From a virus (Duplodnaviria > Heunggongvirae > Uroviricota > Caudoviricetes), in IMG/VR virus record IMGVR_UViG_2531839640_000007: a stretch of 43,851 bases of DNA. One strand, 5' to 3'. A program made the translations under genes and the position numbers. This document shows, in pieces, positions 1,421 through 20,650 of the stretch (the first letter of the stretch is position 1; each line of letters opens with the position of its first letter). A model generated the notes under the pieces. The model was not told where the DNA came from and did not search any database. It saw nothing but the letters and a program-made list of their open reading frames with translations.

Positions 1421-2489
1421 ATTTGATTTCAATTTTGTCCCACTCCCTGCCTCTGTCATCACGATACTGTGATGCCATGGTGTCCGACTTATGCCCGAGA
1501 AGATGTTGAGCAAACTTATCGCTTATCTGCTTCTCATAGAGTCTTGCAGACAAACTGCGCAACTCGTGAAAGGTAGGCGGATCCCCTTCGAAGGAAAGAC
1601 CTGATGCTTTTCGTGCGCGCATAAAATACCTTGATACTGTGCCGGATGAAAGCGGTTCGCGACGAGTAGATGCAATTATGGTTTCTCCGCCAAGAATCTC
1701 TTTGCATTTATCAAGTGTTTCCTTCATTGATATTCCGAGAGCATCAACATGCAATGCTGTTGGGATGGCAATTTTTACGCCTGTTTTGCTTTGCTCGACA
1801 TAAAGATATCCATCTACGATATCAGACCACTTCATTTCGCATAAATCACCAACTCGTTGCCCGGTAACAACAGCCAGTTCCATTGCAAGTCTGAGCCAAC
1901 ATGGTGATGATTCTGCTGCTTGATAAATTTTCAGGTATTCGTCAGCCGTAAGTCTTGATCTCCTTACCTCTGATTTTGCTGCGCGAGTGGCAGCGACAGG
2001 GTTTGTTGTTATATGGCCTTCAGCTATTGCCTCTCGGAATGCATCGCTCAGTGTTGATCTGATTAACTTGGCTGACGCCGCCTTGCCCTCGTCTATGTAT
2101 CCATTGAGCATTGCCGCAATTTCTTTTGTGGTGATGTCTTCAAGTGGAGCATCAGGCAGACCCCTCCTTATTGCTTTAATTTTGCTCATGTAATTTATGA
2201 GTGTCTTCTGCTTGATTCCTCTGCTGGCCAGGATTTTTTCGTAGCGATCAAGCCATGAATGTAACGTAACGGAATTATCACTGTTGATTCTCGCTGTCAG
2301 AGGCTTGTGTTTGTGTCCTGAAAATAACTCAATGTTGGCCTGTATGGCTTCAGTGATTGCGATTCGCCTGTCTCTGCCTAATCCAAACTCTTTACCCGTC
2401 CTTGGGTCCCTGTAGCAGTAATATCCATTGTTTCTTATATAAAGGTTAGGGGGTAAATCCCGGCGCTCATGACTTCGCCTTCTTCCCAT
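1419..2489 (-). CDS. int: Lambda integrase (tyrosine recombinase), 356 aa
   Basis: ORF; protein recognised as lambda Int (MGRRRSHERRDLPPNLYIRNNGYY...). Confidence 0.97.
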   Translation of the reverse strand: MGRRRSHERRDLPPNLYIRNNGYYCYRDPRTGKEFGLGRDRRIAITEAIQANIELFSGHKHKPLTARINSDNSVTLHSWLDRYEKILASRGIKQKTLINYMSKIKAIRRGLPDAPLEDITTKEIAAMLNGYIDEGKAASAKLIRSTLSDAFREAIAEGHITTNPVAATRAAKSEVRRSRLTADEYLKIYQAAESSPCWLRLAMELAVVTGQRVGDLCEMKWSDIVDGYLYVEQSKTGVKIAIPTALHVDALGISMKETLDKCKEILGGETIIASTRREPLSSGTVSRYFMRARKASGLSFEGDPPTFHELRSLSARLYEKQISDKFAQHLLGHKSDTMASQYRDDRGREWDKIEIK

Positions 2490-2685
2490 TTCTGATCCTC
2501 TTCAAAAGGCTACCTGTTACTGGTCGATTTAAGTCAACCTTTACCGCTGATTCGTGGAACAGATACTCTCTTCCATCCTTAACCGGAGGAGGGAATATCC
2601 TGCACTCGCGTACCCATCGACGAACTGTTTCAAGGCTTCTTGGGCGTCGCTGGCGTGCGTTCCACTCCTGAAGTGTCAAGTACAT
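2467..2685 (-). CDS. xis: Lambda excisionase, 72 aa
   Basis: ORF overlapping int start; protein recognised as lambda Xis (MYLTLQEWNARQRRPRSLETVRRW...). Confidence 0.95.
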   Translation of the reverse strand: MYLTLQEWNARQRRPRSLETVRRWVRECRIFPPPVKDGREYLFHESAVKVDLNRPVTGSLLKRIRNGKKAKS

Positions 2686-2724
2686 CGCAAAGTCTCCGCA
2701 ATTACACGCAAGAAAAAACCGCCA

Positions 2725-2892
2725 TCAGGCGGCTTGGTGTTCTTTCAGTTCTTCAATTCGAATATTGGTTACGTCTGCATGTGCTATCTGCGCCCACAGC
2801 ATCCAGTGGTCATAGCAGTCGCTGATGTTCTCGGCTTCGATAACTCTGTTGAATGGTTCTCCATTCCATTCACCTGTGACTCGGAAGTGCAT
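2725..2892 (-). CDS. Small hypothetical protein, 55 aa (MHFRVTGEWNGEPFNRVIEAENISDCYDHWMLWAQIAHADVTNIRIEELKEHQAA), xis-adjacent small ORF as in lambda
   Basis: Hand-translated minus-strand ORF below the 60-aa track cutoff; co-oriented with pL operon. Confidence 0.4.
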   Translation of the reverse strand: MHFRVTGEWNGEPFNRVIEAENISDCYDHWMLWAQIAHADVTNIRIEELKEHQAA

Positions 2893-3134
2893 TTATCATC
2901 TCCATAAAACAAAACCCGCCGTAGCGAGTTCAGATAAAAGAAATCCTCGTCAGTGCGAGGATGCTGTTCATTGCTGCTATACACTTTTTTGCTCTCAACG
3001 TAAGCGGTAGCCCATTCTGTTGGGTTGGTGCAGTTGCTTTTAGGAAATGCTATTTACCCCTTAAATTTCGGCTGAAAGAGCTAAAATCCATGCAAAAAAT
3101 TTACGCAATTTTGTGTATTATTGTGCAGTAAGTA

Positions 3135-3737
3135 ATGAGCTATTTTCTGCGCAAAAAATGGATGGTAAATTTGTCCGGGTCAGGAAAAATTTTATGGGCG
3201 CTAAACATGAAAAAAGATTCGTATCCTTATTTGATTTGCATGACAGTTTCAGGGCTGATCTTTATTTTCCTTTTCTTCTGGTGGCGGGCAGATATCTACA
3301 GGGTCACGTTTCTTAATCAGAGTATATCCCACTATTACATTCTGTTTAGCATGGGAATAGCTTTTCTGTTATCTCTGTTTTGGGTTAAGAAGGGGATAGT
3401 AAAACAAAGAGGCTGGAAGAGTCTGTCAGCATACCTTAAGGTTTATGCAGGGATGTGCATATTTGCTGGATTTTTTCTGATTATACCCCTTACGACACTA
3501 ACTTATTTTTTGCCTGGAGAGACATCGTCTTATGTTGCACCGTATCGGTATACTTCCGGTAGTTCAAAAAGTTGTTCTGGAGCTGAGGTGGATGACCCCG
3601 AACTACATGAGAATATTCGCATTTGCTATCCGTATGGCAATTATGAGTACGATAATATTATCTATGTTGAAAAGAAAATTAATATATTAGGTGCGGTAGT
3701 GACATATGCACAGACCGCGCGTGATGATACTGAATGA
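3135..3737 (+). CDS. Hypothetical membrane protein, 200 aa, three predicted TM helices plus Cys-containing C-terminal domain; AT-rich opposite-strand cargo gene
   Basis: Long ORF on strand opposite to pL operon; hydrophobic segments LICMTVSGLIFIFLFFWW, YYILFSMGIAFLLSLFWV, VYAGMCIFAGFFLIIPLTTLTYFL; low GC; start codon uncertain (alternative Met at MVNLSG or MKKDSY). Confidence 0.6.
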   Translation: MSYFLRKKWMVNLSGSGKILWALNMKKDSYPYLICMTVSGLIFIFLFFWWRADIYRVTFLNQSISHYYILFSMGIAFLLSLFWVKKGIVKQRGWKSLSAYLKVYAGMCIFAGFFLIIPLTTLTYFLPGETSSYVAPYRYTSGSSKSCSGAEVDDPELHENIRICYPYGNYEYDNIIYVEKKINILGAVVTYAQTARDDTE

Positions 3738-3771
3738 TATAGTATATAGCGGGCAAGTTTTAGTTAATTTA

Positions 3772-3800
3772 TCGAGGTAATATAATTTACCTCGACTCGT
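3772..3800 (+). terminator. Hairpin TCGAGGTAA-tataat-TTACCTCGA followed by T-rich tract; possible terminator of the membrane-protein gene
   Basis: 9-bp perfect inverted repeat 35 nt after the stop codon. Confidence 0.35.
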
Positions 3801-3947
3801 TTGTTCTGGTATTAATATTTCGCTTTACGACCGATTTTTATCTGATGATATCATGCGGTTTTCATATACTGACTTACTGTCTTTTCTCCGTTAGCGATTT
3901 TCTCCTGCTCAGCGATGATTTTATCTTTGGCTTCTAGTTAATTTCGC

Positions 3948-4169
3948 TCACTTCGAACCTCTCTGTTTACTGATAAGCTCCAGATCCTCCTGGCAACTTG
4001 CACAAGTCCGACAACCCTGAACGACCAGGCGTCTTCGTTCATCTATCGGATCGCCACACTCACAACAATGAGTGGCAGATATAGCCTGGTGGTTCAGGCG
4101 GCGCATTTTTATTGCTGTGTTGCGCTGTAATTCTTCAATTTCTGATGCTGAATCAATGATGTCTGCCAT
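3948..4169 (-). CDS. TraR/DksA-family C4 zinc-finger protein, 73 aa (lambda orf73-like)
   Basis: CxxC...CxxC motif (CCECGDPI ... CRTCASCQ); matches recollection of lambda Orf73 TraR homologue. Confidence 0.75.
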   Translation of the reverse strand: MADIIDSASEIEELQRNTAIKMRRLNHQAISATHCCECGDPIDERRRLVVQGCRTCASCQEDLELISKQRGSK

Positions 4170-4267
4170 CTTCCATTAATCCCTGAATTGTTGGTTAATA
4201 CGCTTGAGGGTGAATGCGAATAATAAAAAAGGAGCCTGTAGCTCCCTGATGATTTTGCTTTTCATGT

Positions 4268-4579
4268 TCATCGTTCCTTAAAGACGCCGTTTAACATGCC
4301 GATTGCCAGGCTTAAATGAGTCGGTGTGAATCCCATCAGCGTTACCGTTTCGCGGTGCTTCTTCAGTACGCTACGGCAAATGTCATCGACGTTTTTATCC
4401 GGAAACTGCTGTCTGGCTTTTTTGATTTCAGAATTAGCCTGACGGGCAATGCTGCGAAGGGCGTTTTCCTGCTGAGGTGTCATTGAACAAGTCCCATGTC
4501 GGCAAGCATAAGCACACAGAATATGAAGCCCGCTGCCAGAAAAATGCATTCCGTGGTTGTCATACCTGGTCTCTCTCAT
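4268..4579 (-). CDS. Small early-left hypothetical protein (lambda orf61 region); true start probably internal (MTPQQENALRSIARQ..., about 71 aa)
   Basis: ORF in pL operon orientation overlapping orf63 start; N-terminal 30 residues look non-protein-like. Confidence 0.45.
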   Translation of the reverse strand: MRETRYDNHGMHFSGSGLHILCAYACRHGTCSMTPQQENALRSIARQANSEIKKARQQFPDKNVDDICRSVLKKHRETVTLMGFTPTHLSLAIGMLNGVFKER

Positions 4580-4751: not shown

Positions 4752-4912
4752 ACAGCTCCCCGTTTATTATTTATCTCCTCAGCCAGCCGCTGTGCTTTCA
4801 GGGGATTTCGGATAACAGAAAGGCCGGGAAATACCCAGCCTCGCTTCGTAACGGAGTAGACGAAAGTGATCGTGCCTACCCGGATATTATCGTGAGGATG
4901 CTTCATCGCCAT
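4724..4912 (-). CDS. Lambda orf60a-like protein, 62 aa
   Basis: Position directly upstream of exo, overlapping its start; sequence recalled as lambda orf60a. Confidence 0.7.
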
Positions 4913-5583
4913 TGCTCCCCAAATACAAAACCAATTTCAGCCAGTGCCACGTCCATTTTTTCGATGAACTCCGGCACCATCTCGTCAAAATTCGCCATGT
5001 ACTTTTCATTCCGCTCAATCACGACATAATGCAGGCCTTCACGCTTCATACGCGGGTCATAGTTGGCAAAGTACCAGGCATCTTTTCGCGTCACCCACAT
5101 GCTGTACTGCACCTGGGCCATGTAAGCCGATTTTATGGCCTCGAAACCACCGAGCCGGAACTTCATGAAATCCCGGGAGGTAAACGGGCATTTCAGTTCA
5201 AGGCCGTTGCCGTCACTGCATAAACCATCGGGAGAGCAGGCGGTGCGCATACTTTCGTCGCGATAGATGATCGGGGATTCAGTAACATTCACGCCGGAAG
5301 TGAATTCAAACAGGGTTCTGGCGTCGTTCTCGTACTGTTTTCCCCAGGCCAGCGCCTTAGCATTAACTTCCGGAGCCACACCGGTGCAAACCTCAGCCAG
5401 CAGGGTGTGGAAGTAGGACATTTTCATGTCAGGCCACTTCTTTCCTGAGCGGGGCTTTGCTATCACGTTGTGAACTTCTGAAGCGGTGATGACGCCGAGC
5501 CGTAATTTGTGCCATGCATCATCCCCCTGTTCGACAGCTCTCACGTCGATCCCGGTACGCTGCAGGATAATGTCCGGTGTCAT
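4903..5583 (-). CDS. exo: Lambda exonuclease (Red-alpha), 226 aa
   Basis: Protein recognised as lambda Exo ([30 protein letters not shown]...). Confidence 0.97.
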
Positions 5584-6365
5584 GCTGCCACCTTCTGCTC
5601 AGTGGCTTTCTGTTTCAGGAATCCAAGAGCTTTCACTGCTTCGGCCTGTGTCAGTTCTGACGATGCGCGAATGTCGCGGCGAAATATCTGGGAACAGAGC
5701 GGCAATAAGTCGTCATCCCATGTTTTATCCAGGGCGATCAGCAGAGTGTTAATCTCCTGCATGGTTTCATCGTTAACCGGAGTGATGTCGCGTTCTGGCT
5801 GACGTTCTGCAGTGTATGCGGTATTTTCGACAATGCGCTCGGCTTCATCCTTGTCATAGATACCAGCAAATCCGAAGGCCAGACGGGCACACTGAATCAT
5901 GGCTTTATGCCGTAACATCCGTTTGGGATGCGACTGCCACGGCCCCGTGATTTCTCTGCCTTCGCGAGTTTTGAATGGTTCGCGGCGGCATTCATCCATC
6001 CATTCGGTAACGCAGATCGGATGATTACGGTCCTTGCGGTAAATCCGGCATGTACAGGATTCATTGTCCTGCTCAAAGTCCATGCCATCAAACTGCTGGT
6101 TTTCATTGATGATGCGGGACCAGCCATCAACGCCCACCACCGGAACGATGCCGTTCTGCTTATCAGGGAAGGCGTAAATTTCTTTCGTCCACGGATTAAG
6201 GCCGTACTGGTTGGCGACGATCAACAATGCGATGAACTGCGCATCGCTGGCATCACCTTTAAATGCCGTCTGGCGAAGAGTGGTGATCAGTTCCTGTGGG
6301 TCGACAGAATCCATGCCGACACGTTCAGCCAGCTTCCCTGCCAGCGTTGCGAGTGCTGTACTCAT
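5580..6365 (-). CDS. bet: Lambda Beta single-strand annealing protein (Red-beta), 261 aa
   Basis: Protein recognised as lambda Bet ([37 protein letters not shown]...). Confidence 0.97.
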
Positions 6366-18690: not shown

Positions 18691-19212
18691 ATGAATATCG
18701 TGCCACTTAATTACAAAGGTGAAATTGTCAGTTTCAACACTGATGGTTGGATCAACGTCACAGGTGTTGCTGAGAGATTTGGGAAACGCATTGATAACTG
18801 GATGCGTTTGGCAGAAACGCTTGAATACGTTCGTGCTTTAGACGAAGCGTTGACCGGGAAAGAATCTCAAATTTTACATCCCTCACAATCGAGGTATGTA
18901 AAAACCAGCAAGGCACGAAAGGACAGGGGTGGTGGTACGTGGCTACATCCAAAACTTTCAGTTGCATTTGCCCGTTGGTGTGATGCTCGTTTTGCTGTGT
19001 GGTGCGACCTGCACATTGATAGTCTGCTTCGCGGTGAACTGACTGAGCAGCAGAAATATGAGCAAGCATGTCGCATTCGCGATGACCGGAAATCAAAAGC
19101 CAGCAATGGGGCAAGAGAGATGGCTCGCTGGCGATGGGATAAGCCGGTTATTGAAGCAAATGTTGAGTACTGGCGCGAGCAACTGCAGTTGACTCTCGAT
19201 ATCGCGTGCTGA
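18691..19212 (+). CDS. KilA-N domain protein, 173 aa
   Basis: N-terminal DGWINVTGVAERFGKRIDNWMRLAETLEYVRALDEAL resembles KilA-N/APSES fold; C-terminal half uncharacterised. Confidence 0.55.
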   Translation: MNIVPLNYKGEIVSFNTDGWINVTGVAERFGKRIDNWMRLAETLEYVRALDEALTGKESQILHPSQSRYVKTSKARKDRGGGTWLHPKLSVAFARWCDARFAVWCDLHIDSLLRGELTEQQKYEQACRIRDDRKSKASNGAREMARWRWDKPVIEANVEYWREQLQLTLDIAC

Positions 19213-19561
19213 TGGCAAACGCAAAACTGCGTTATCGAAAAAATCAAAGCATTACTAGAACTGAGCAACGGCTATCCATTACAAAGCCCATCTACGGGTG
19301 GGCTTGATAATGGCTTATACCCTGCACGGGATAACTTAACTGATATCCCTTTTAACGGATAAAGGCATTCAAGCCTGACACATCATGCGCTGTATCGTCG
19401 CCGTATTCCCGTATTAACAGAGACCGTAGCCCGACGGGGAACTCCTTCTGCGCGAGTGTGCGGGAATAATCAAAAACGATGCACACCGGGGTTACCGGGT
19501 ACACATATTTCATCATGCCAGCGAGTCCGGTTCTGGCACGGAAGAAACCGGACGTTATGAT

Positions 19562-19987
19562 TTAGTGCGGAAATATTTGTGTAGTGTTCTGAATGTTCTC
19601 AGTAAAGAGTAATGAATTATCAAAGGTATAGTAATACCTTTTGTTTTCGTGGATATTTGTAATCCATCTGAAAACCCCTGCTGTAGCAAGATTTTTCCTG
19701 TATTCGTAAAATGATAACTCTCCTGATTTGAATCCTTTTAAGGTGGCTTCTATAAGGCATTTATTTTTTGAAAATCTTACATTTACAACCTTACCCTGTC
19801 CTTTTATTAAAACCGTATTATCGTTTTCAAGAACAAGATGAATATTCTCTGTAGCTAAATAGTAAATGTAATGTGAGACATTGTGACGTTTTAGTTCAGA
19901 ATAAAACCAGTGATAGTTTAAATTATTTCGCACTTTATCGAATATTTGTTTAAAAATGGCAACCTGAGCCATTGTAGTACCTTCCAT
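19562..19987 (-). CDS. DUF1398-family protein (YbcV/YdfO-like), about 136-141 aa, AT-rich
   Basis: Sequence recalled as YbcV/YdfO family ([37 protein letters not shown]...); start codon uncertain. Confidence 0.65.
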
Positions 19988-20028
19988 GTGATATGAGGGG
20001 CGTAGTCTGCACGATTATCTAAATTGCT

Positions 20029-20262
20029 TCAATCTGGTCTGATCTGTTTTCTGAGCAATTCAGTAATGTCACTCTTTTCTTTGTTTGCTTCAGGAGAAAC
20101 TCTTTTTTCTGAGCACAGTCTCCGGCGGCAGGCTTCAATGACCCAGGCTGAGAAATTCCCGGACCCTTTTTGATCAAGAGCGATGTTAATTTGTTCAATC
20201 ATTTGGTTAGGAAAGCGGATGTTGCGGATTGTTGTTCTGCGGGTTCTGTTCTTCGTTGACAT
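20029..20262 (-). CDS. YlcI/YnfO-like small protein, 77 aa, with probable ribbon-helix-helix fold
   Basis: TIRNIRFPNQMIEQINIALDQKGSGNFSAWVIEACRRRL resembles RHH DNA-binding motif; upstream and co-oriented with DUF1398 gene. Confidence 0.55.
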   Translation of the reverse strand: MSTKNRTRRTTIRNIRFPNQMIEQINIALDQKGSGNFSAWVIEACRRRLCSEKRVSPEANKEKSDITELLRKQIRPD

Positions 20263-20449
20263 GAGGTTGTCCCGTATTTAGTGTCGCTGATTTGTATTGT
20301 CTGAAGTTGTTTTTACGTTAAGTTGATGCAGATCAATTAATATGATACCTGCGTCATAATTGATTATTTGACGTGGTTTGATGGCGTAGATGCACGTTGT
20401 GACATGCAGATGATAATTATTATCATTTTGCGGGTCCTTTCCGGCGATC

Positions 20450-20473
20450 CGACAGGTTACGGGGCGGCGACCT
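20450..20473. other. cos: cos site: lambda right-end sequence ...CGACAGGTTACG joined to 12-nt cohesive end GGGCGGCGACCT
   Basis: Exact lambda cohesive-end sequence at 20462-20473 followed by lambda left-arm leader to Nu1. Confidence 0.9.
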
Positions 20474-20650
20474 CGCGGGTTTTCGCTATTTATGAAAATT
20501 TTCCGGTTTAAGGCGTTTCCGTTCTTCTTCGTCATAACTTAATGTTTTTATTTAAAATACCCTCTGAAAAGAAAGGAAGCGACAGGTGCTGAAAGCGAGC
20601 TTTTTGGCCTCTGTCGTTTCCTTTCTCTGTTTTTGTCCGTGGAATGAACA

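Follow-up and report, generated by a model that had tools for sequence, protein, structure and literature searches.

What is a single AT-rich gene, read against the leftward early operon of a lambdoid prophage, doing there, and where did it come from? The window analysed here is the whole 43,851-nucleotide stretch of Caudoviricetes DNA in IMG/VR record IMGVR_UViG_2531839640_000007, and the question concerns its positions 2893-3947, for which an earlier note, made from the letters alone, had proposed a 200-residue membrane protein with a possible exclusion, defence or membrane-toxin function. Comparison with related loci showed that this gene forms part of a single-gene mobile cassette (about 3070-3830), made up of a putative extended −10-type promoter, a 176-amino-acid (aa) protein and a hairpin, which lambdoid prophages carry in their ea22 slot and P2-like prophages in the gpQ-gpA hotspot. 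Based on context and architecture, we give a probability of about 40% to the reading that the protein is a prophage-expressed, envelope-level block on superinfecting phages. The family itself is not new as a sequence family, being already catalogued as function-unknown under three labels (CPT_434_36 of phage 434, PHROG 1416 and Rousset System #4).

A single-gene cassette common to lambdoid and P2-like prophages

Alignment by blastn matched window positions 3070-3827 to an E. coli P2-like locus at 76.5% identity, and the DNA common to the lambdoid and P2-like loci comprised only the promoter-like element, the gene and the hairpin. The comparison of this slot across prophages, suggested in the earlier note, recovered the same cassette in phages 434 (CPT_434_36, 'putative membrane protein', 97.5% identity), mEp332 and 2B8 as well as in the P2-like gpQ-gpA locus. 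Five independent homologues reside in the latter (E. coli, 78% identity; Salmonella, 70% and 58%; Klebsiella michiganensis, 55%; Enterobacter hormaechei, 58%), where they are read away from the portal gene gpQ and convergently with gpA, whereas the window copy sits between xis and exo of a lambdoid prophage. No neighbour gene is conserved among these settings and the gene travels alone. In the Klebsiella michiganensis P2-like prophages (L017/L018 2281-5623) the homologue shares the hotspot with a 790-aa protein, which has a weak AAA_16 match, and a 279-aa protein, and these two may constitute a separate defence system. The parts of the cassette in the window are as follows.

3135-3206, + strand: N-terminal extension of the 200-aa open reading frame (ORF), unconserved as protein and conserved as DNA with P2-like loci
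3163-3171, + strand: extended −10-like element TGGTAAATT, with TG at 3163-3164 and the hexamer TAAATT at 3166-3171
3207-3737, + strand: coding sequence of the 176-aa protein, starting at ATG 3207 and including the TGA stop at 3735-3737
3772-3795, + strand: perfect 9-bp hairpin with a 6-nt loop, 35 nt past the stop codon

Three starts have been annotated for this gene, with older GenBank records giving 176 aa (P0145), RefSeq 200 aa from ATG 3135 and the phage 434 annotation 188 aa from TTG 3171. When 23 members of the family were aligned, M25 of the 200-aa ORF proved invariant, and the first 24 residues were absent or unrelated in 22 homologues. Because M25 is invariant, the 24-residue extension is unconserved and the promoter-like element falls inside this extension, ATG 3207 was preferred, and both the 200-aa and the 188-aa readings were dropped on the grounds of conservation and promoter position. 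Moreover, the extension could not be translated from a transcript that begins near 3178, so the gene was taken as 3207-3737. It most likely encodes 176 aa, in place of the 200-aa product from ATG 3135 that had been proposed, and 3135-3206 would probably be untranslated, holding the promoter and the 5' untranslated region. Against a copy with 76% nucleotide identity (synonymous divergence, dS, about 1), the ratio of nonsynonymous to synonymous divergence (dN/dS) was 0.12, indicating that this is by such a measure a real coding gene under purifying selection. Constraint is stronger on the C-terminal domain (0.08) than on the membrane part (0.16).

Copies from lambdoid and P2-like phages and from the Cedecea chromosome all have the motif TGnTAAnTT upstream of the ATG, at a distance of about 36-41 nt. 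At 3163-3171 it looks like an extended −10 promoter with a predicted transcript start near 3178; a promoter scan based on two hexamers did not list this element. At the other end, the 9-bp perfect stem reported in the earlier note was confirmed. It contains 4 GC pairs and is followed by a moderately U-rich tail, CTCGTTTGTT, in which the U-run is interrupted, and it passes a lax terminator rule. The 78-nt hairpin region folds with −18.7 kcal/mol (z = −2.9) and the hairpin, a putative terminator of the gene, lies inside the block aligning to the E. coli P2-like copy. An Rfam search of positions 2400-4400 gave no match.

The cassette has relics on both flanks, and a 56-aa ORF has been annotated across the left one.

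2961-3131, + strand: 56-aa ORF, annotated in phage 434 as CPT_434_35, 'putative membrane protein'
3070-3127, + strand: decayed P2-like backbone relic, aligning to a TTGTGCA x3 element of P2-like loci
3100-3107, 3111-3117 and 3121-3127, + strand: three 10-bp-spaced repeats in this relic, TTTACGCA, TTGTGTA and TTGTGCA, respectively
3851-3937, − strand: 28-codon 3' remnant of an Ead/Ea22-like gene (LEAKDKIIAEQEKIANGEKTVSQYMKTA and stop)

The exact triple repeat TTGTGCA x3 was found in at least 120 viral contig loci (L024-L143). A P2-type portal gene ends upstream of it in the same orientation, at a median distance of 428 bp, in 106 of the 120 listed contigs, and among these 120 it is followed by 81 different sequences. 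Given the portal gene upstream and following sequences that are nearly all different, the triple repeat represents P2-like backbone at the edge of the hotspot rather than cargo, and the idea that it is an operator of the cassette was ruled out by the same counts. Packaging, a promoter or a factor-binding site are possibilities for its role. P2 itself carries ATGCA x3 at the equivalent place (L144 3950-3985), just upstream of the old-tin transcript starts.

Two features annotated in the phage 434 record (OL657226) lie on this P2-backbone relic and look spurious. One is CPT_434_35 (4827-4997 in that record), which would have been a second membrane protein. The corresponding ORF at 2961-3131 is probably not a gene, as the non-coding P2-backbone relic makes up its 3' third and the L015 sequence aligned to it carries an insertion of ~85 bp. 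The other is a 'CII binding site' (4977-4990 in that record; 3111-3124 in the window). We took as a CII promoter a TTGC-N6-TTGC motif flanking the −35 region in a phage encoding lambda-type CII; the sequence here is TTGT-N6-TTGT, a decayed P2-type TTGTGCA repeat, and lambda-type CII is not annotated in the prophage of E. coli 55989, where a YdaT-domain protein occupies the cII position. A CII-dependent promoter was rejected for this site.

On the other flank, the 28-codon remnant agrees with the assignment in the earlier note of this block to the place where lambda carries ea8.5 and ea22. Being too short for a direct Pfam match, it was identified through an ORF of the E. coli P2-like locus that has a PF13935 (Ead_Ea22) hit with E = 1.4e-6 (pairwise match 11/16 identical, E = 4e-5; DNA identity 77%). 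Beside the E. coli P2-like copy, the Ead/Ea22-like gene is a frameshifted pseudogene (L015 7622-8004; L145 4285-4655). The remnant shows that the cassette replaced most of ea22 and sits at the former ea22 site. The simplest history would be import from a P2-like hotspot through a crossover in an ea22-type gene and an illegitimate join in the P2 backbone.

A rival explanation is that the gene is a decaying passenger without current function, a relic of recombination between P2-like and lambdoid phages. The decayed P2 repeats and the Ea22-like remnant on its flanks would fit this explanation, as would the fact that the E. coli copies have a poor Shine-Dalgarno sequence ahead of ATG 3207 and the existence of frameshifted copies. 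By contrast, hundreds of genomes have an undamaged ORF with 96-100% identity, and its low dN/dS and the conserved promoter-like element also argue against this explanation. We consider a functionless passenger very improbable.

Architecture of the predicted membrane protein

AlphaFold2 was run with the family alignment and the helices were cross-checked by hydropathy. The full model reached a predicted local distance difference test score (pLDDT) of 86.6 and a predicted template-modelling score (pTM) of 0.72, with helices at residues 5-29, 38-61 and 70-101, a short strand (34-36) in loop 1 and five strands after the last helix. The C-terminal 77 residues modelled alone gave a pLDDT of 91.2. 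The three hydrophobic helices and the Cys-containing C-terminal domain read from the sequence in the earlier note were thus reproduced by both approaches, the domain having ~77 residues and 2 Cys. The segments are listed below with residues of the 176-aa protein; all are on the + strand.

3228-3290: transmembrane helix 1, residues 8-28 (hydropathy; AlphaFold2 helix 5-29)
3291-3329: loop 1, residues 29-41, with conserved I30, R32, T34, F35 and L36; predicted periplasmic
3330-3386: transmembrane helix 2, residues 42-60 (AlphaFold2 and hydropathy)
3387-3428: basic loop 2, KKGIVKQRGWKSLS (+5/0); predicted cytoplasmic by the positive-inside rule
3429-3503: transmembrane helix 3, residues 75-99 (AlphaFold2 and hydropathy)
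3504-3734: C-terminal five-strand beta-barrel, residues 100-176, acidic (net −6); predicted periplasmic

Charged residues are distributed unevenly along the chain (N-terminus +2/−1, loop 1 +1/−1, loop 2 +5/0, C-terminal domain +6/−12). Under the positive-inside rule, this distribution predicts an N-in orientation in which loop 2 is cytoplasmic while loop 1, which contains invariant and near-invariant alignment columns, and the C-terminal barrel are periplasmic. Two Cys are invariant, C123 (codon 3573-3575) and C140 (codon 3624-3626), and in the model they are placed at the start of strand 125-130 and at the end of strand 135-140, respectively. A periplasmic disulfide C123-C140 is plausible from this model.

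Neither Pfam-A nor NCBIfam contained a significant match for the protein, a PDB sequence-profile search returned none, and Foldseek against the BFVD viral models found nothing at E <= 0.001. A confident match to a characterised housekeeping or phage-structural family, for which the earlier note had advised profile and structure searches, was absent from these four collections. The statement in that note that no family could be recognised holds for curated libraries only, as the function-unknown entries named above already cover the gene. PHROG 1416 (90 aa, function unknown) matches residues 113-200 of the 200-aa ORF with E = 1e-50, covering the C-terminal part only. A 112-aa product containing only the third transmembrane helix and the C-terminal domain (P0131, P0133) has been called on at least 1000 contigs, presumably from copies disrupted in a similar way to the frameshifted E. 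coli copy described below, and the short PHROG model is perhaps due to such disrupted copies. A profile search of 1.84 billion representative proteins yielded 61 relatives only. The full-length relatives are mostly ~170 aa long and built to the same plan, many of the remainder are shorter fragments, and all those with a named source come from Enterobacteriaceae. A 3074-aa repeat protein (P0124, profile E = 3e-6) was set aside, since it is a long array of near-identical Cys-containing repeats.

These searches also bear on whether the protein is a membrane effector or toxin of abortive infection that senses an infection cue in the periplasm or membrane, depolarises or permeabilises the inner membrane and kills the cell before phage release. 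Transmembrane proteins are common as effectors of such systems (PMC9122126), the gene is found in defence-rich loci, and the frameshifts seen in a large E. coli lineage might mean that the gene is costly to carry. By contrast, no partner or sensor gene travels along, three helices with a folded periplasmic barrel resemble no known pore-forming effector, Pfam, NCBIfam and PADLOC gave no toxin-like family match, and in Enterobacter the gene is stably kept in the chromosome. Abortive infection is improbable on this balance, and the membrane toxin suggested in the earlier note received no specific support.

Superinfection exclusion and its rivals

In the exclusion reading, the gene would be transcribed from its own promoter in the lysogen, where pL is repressed, and once lytic growth began, leftward transcription, being antiterminated, would pass through it in antisense. 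The protein would insert in the inner membrane and expose a periplasmic module, probably disulfide-bonded, which would bind either a conserved envelope component or a conserved part of the DNA-delivery apparatus of the incoming phage. Genome entry of superinfecting phages would then be blocked, resulting in superinfection exclusion in the manner of P22 SieA, yet without homology to it.

An anti-phage role is supported by the fact that temperate phages of two unrelated types have each taken the gene into an accessory slot, one of the two slots being a validated defence hotspot. The gpA-gpQ locus of P2-like prophages has been shown experimentally to be a hotspot of anti-phage systems, housing old and tin in P2, and several of its cargoes have been validated as anti-phage (PMC9122126). 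Further support comes from the autonomy of the gene, with its conserved promoter-like element, and from an orientation that fits expression in the lysogen. The old/tin genes and the validated cargoes occupy the same locus in P2-like phages, are likewise transcribed in the direction leading away from the cos-proximal repeats, with expression in the lysogen, but they encode cytoplasmic nucleases, ATPases and the like that are unrelated to the window protein in sequence and mechanism. The family had already been listed for this hotspot as 'System #4' (Rousset et al. 2022, Table S5B), a one-protein system described as '3 TM' with no Pfam domain, which with 470 occurrences is the fourth commonest cargo listed (PMC9122126). 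BLASTP aligned the System #4 protein to the window protein with 51% identity over 168 aa (E = 7e-56). System #4, CPT_434_36 and PHROG 1416 are homologous to the window protein, with three transmembrane helices, a C-terminal domain and the form of a single-gene cassette in common. Unlike System #4, the window copy is in the lambdoid ea22 slot, but it has retained the P2-backbone relic.

Several exclusion proteins offer a comparison in design. HK97 gp15, Tuc2009 Sie2009, TP-J34 Ltp and the T4 proteins Imm and Sp come from moron-type single genes expressed from the prophage, are anchored in the membrane, have a part outside the cytoplasm and work at the stage of DNA entry; the window gene would follow the same general plan. 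They differ from the window protein in helix number and domain type, and they are likened to it by description. For the window protein, neither Pfam nor PHROG gave a match to a family of known function. DUF1093 small beta-barrel proteins of Firmicutes (PDB 3npp, 2k5q) were also listed among the closest known systems. The exclusion proteins of Tuc2009 and TP-J34 and the work on HK97 are mentioned or cited in a study of P22 SieA (PMC10883804), a 162/164-aa inner-membrane protein with three predicted transmembrane helices that alone is necessary and sufficient for blocking DNA injection (PMC10883804). The 176-aa window protein resembles SieA as a small prophage-encoded protein predicted to lie in the inner membrane with three transmembrane helices, and SieA too is a single gene under its own promoter (PMC10883804; P22 annotation). 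The two differ in genomic position and in that the conserved C-terminal part of SieA is predicted to be cytoplasmic, whereas the conserved domain of the window protein is predicted to be periplasmic. The conserved motif FxRYPxEAxxFNK, found near the C-terminus of SieA (PMC10883804), is absent from the 176-aa sequence.

The distribution of the family provides a different perspective. Of 5426 complete E. coli genomes, 905 contain at least 80% of the region. The more distant members of the family, from Cedecea, Klebsiella sp. and Enterobacter, are surrounded by ordinary chromosomal genes. At least seven Enterobacter species, E. mori among them, have the gene beside the same GGDEF and AI-2E-transporter genes, away from phage genes. 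These syntenic copies (L008, L150-L153, L157, L158; gene at 6001 or 8001) are convergent with the GGDEF gene, in some species follow a LysR-type regulator gene by ~17 bp, and are mutually 63-97% identical, which looks like vertical inheritance. Such synteny suggests a host origin or host role of the family, and because these copies lie away from phage genes an ordinary envelope role is possibly ancestral. A 99% identical gene, together with a lambda-type exo, was also seen on a 3.6-kb contig assigned to a Candidatus Nanosynbacter metagenome-assembled genome (JARKOR010000073.1; L148), which is almost certainly contamination by E. coli prophage DNA.

A number of observations weigh against exclusion. 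The chromosomal copies, syntenic in at least seven Enterobacter species and at non-phage loci in Cedecea and Klebsiella, are one. The periplasmic domain is the most conserved part of the protein, unlike what an arms race with variable phage proteins would produce, which points to a partner that is itself conserved and not to a rapidly evolving phage protein. A ParM/StbA partition module is the cargo found most often in the P2 hotspot (PMC9122126), so that location in the hotspot is by itself no proof of defence. System #4 was not among the systems cloned by Rousset et al. 2022 (PMC9122126), and in a widespread E. coli P2-like lineage the copy is frameshifted, as annotated in E. coli O121 RM8352 (L147 707-1282). 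PADLOC-DB 2.0 contained no match at E <= 1. No homology to P22 SieA was found, with neither sequence nor profile similarity to SieA types A-C (BLASTP E = 12; hhalign probability 0.2%). The promoter, the topology and the disulfide are predictions. Finally, the literature searched reports no phenotype for the family, and the 434 genome announcement, the sole paper to which accession numbers, 434 and exclusion terms led, is silent on CPT_434_36. The exclusion or defence candidacy raised in the earlier note has thus gained contextual support from the P2-hotspot homologues, but neither a reported phenotype nor a PADLOC match.

Much of this evidence fits a serious rival, in which a host inner-membrane protein was captured as a moron and serves in lysogenic conversion or envelope physiology, outside defence. 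By binding a conserved component of the envelope, the periplasmic domain would then change stress tolerance or signalling, or the immunity of the cell to a bacteriocin or contact-dependent toxin. The apparently vertical orthologues in Enterobacter and the non-phage loci in Cedecea and Klebsiella argue for it. Strong conservation of the periplasmic domain would be expected if its partner in the host is conserved, other envelope genes of host type, such as the one for an OmpC-like porin, have been captured by this prophage, and the P2 hotspot also has non-defence cargo. By contrast, the phage copies are in anti-phage-enriched loci of two unrelated phage types, and no known domain or neighbour gene indicates a particular physiological pathway. 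We regard this captured-moron explanation as a tentative but substantial possibility, short of even odds.

Returning to exclusion, a more specific form of it is that the family is a new, SieA-unrelated class of inner-membrane entry blockers, in which a conserved, disulfide-bonded periplasmic barrel occludes a conserved host component of the DNA-entry route and not a variable phage protein. This form is rather unlikely as it stands. If true, a host-component target would lead to broad exclusion across phage morphotypes, and would explain both the trade of the cassette between siphovirus-type lambdoid and myovirus-type P2-like prophages and its fixation in Enterobacter.

The block in its prophage and the meaning of the cassette

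The window opens in ybhC and continues into a lambdoid prophage at the lambda attachment site. Its DNA is found at 100% identity in E. coli 55989, E24377A and O104:H4 outbreak strains. The features around the gene, all on the − strand, are listed here.

1419-2489: int
2467-2685: xis
2725-2892: 55-aa gene (PHROG 676), directly preceding the block 2893-3947
2912-2962: two terminator-like hairpins for leftward transcription, corresponding to t-L4 in the old phage 434 record M60848
3948-4169: DksA/TraR zinc-finger gene, directly following the block
4903-5583: exo, with small lambda-like genes between the DksA/TraR gene and exo

Beyond exo follow bet, gam and then the S24 repressor gene, also on the − strand. 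The block has one substantial ORF, 3135-3737 (+), opposite to int, xis, exo, bet and gam (all −), and its GC content is 38.3% compared with 51.4% for the whole window, placing it among the lowest 2% of equal-sized windows. Both the AT-richness of this ~1-kb block and the single opposite-strand gene were as the earlier note had described them.

Other low-GC islands, down to 32% GC, are present in the window at about 11000-12700, 16300-17500 and 19300-20500. An ORF in one low-GC island (11433-12233, 266 aa) has a recombinase zinc-ribbon domain as its sole match, and another contains an opposite-strand DUF1398 gene (19562-19987) beside a KilA-N gene (18691-19212). Another cargo gene of the prophage is the OmpC-type porin gene at 15669-16751 (−; Porin_1 E = 3.5e-152), annotated ompC in strain 55989, which occupies a low-GC island, on the opposite strand, immediately past the Q antiterminator gene (region 15082-15480, +).

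The relics on both flanks of the cassette record that P2-like and lambdoid phages have exchanged accessory cargo. The cassette is among the commonest uncharacterised cargo genes of E. coli prophages, including those of the O104:H4 outbreak lineage, strain 55989 and the classical phage 434. It represents a good and easily testable candidate for an anti-phage role rather than a surprise. If the protein is an entry blocker, the few known inner-membrane exclusion proteins would be joined by a new family, with a bearing on the host range of phages, and hence on their therapeutic use, in pathogenic E. coli, Shigella and Salmonella.

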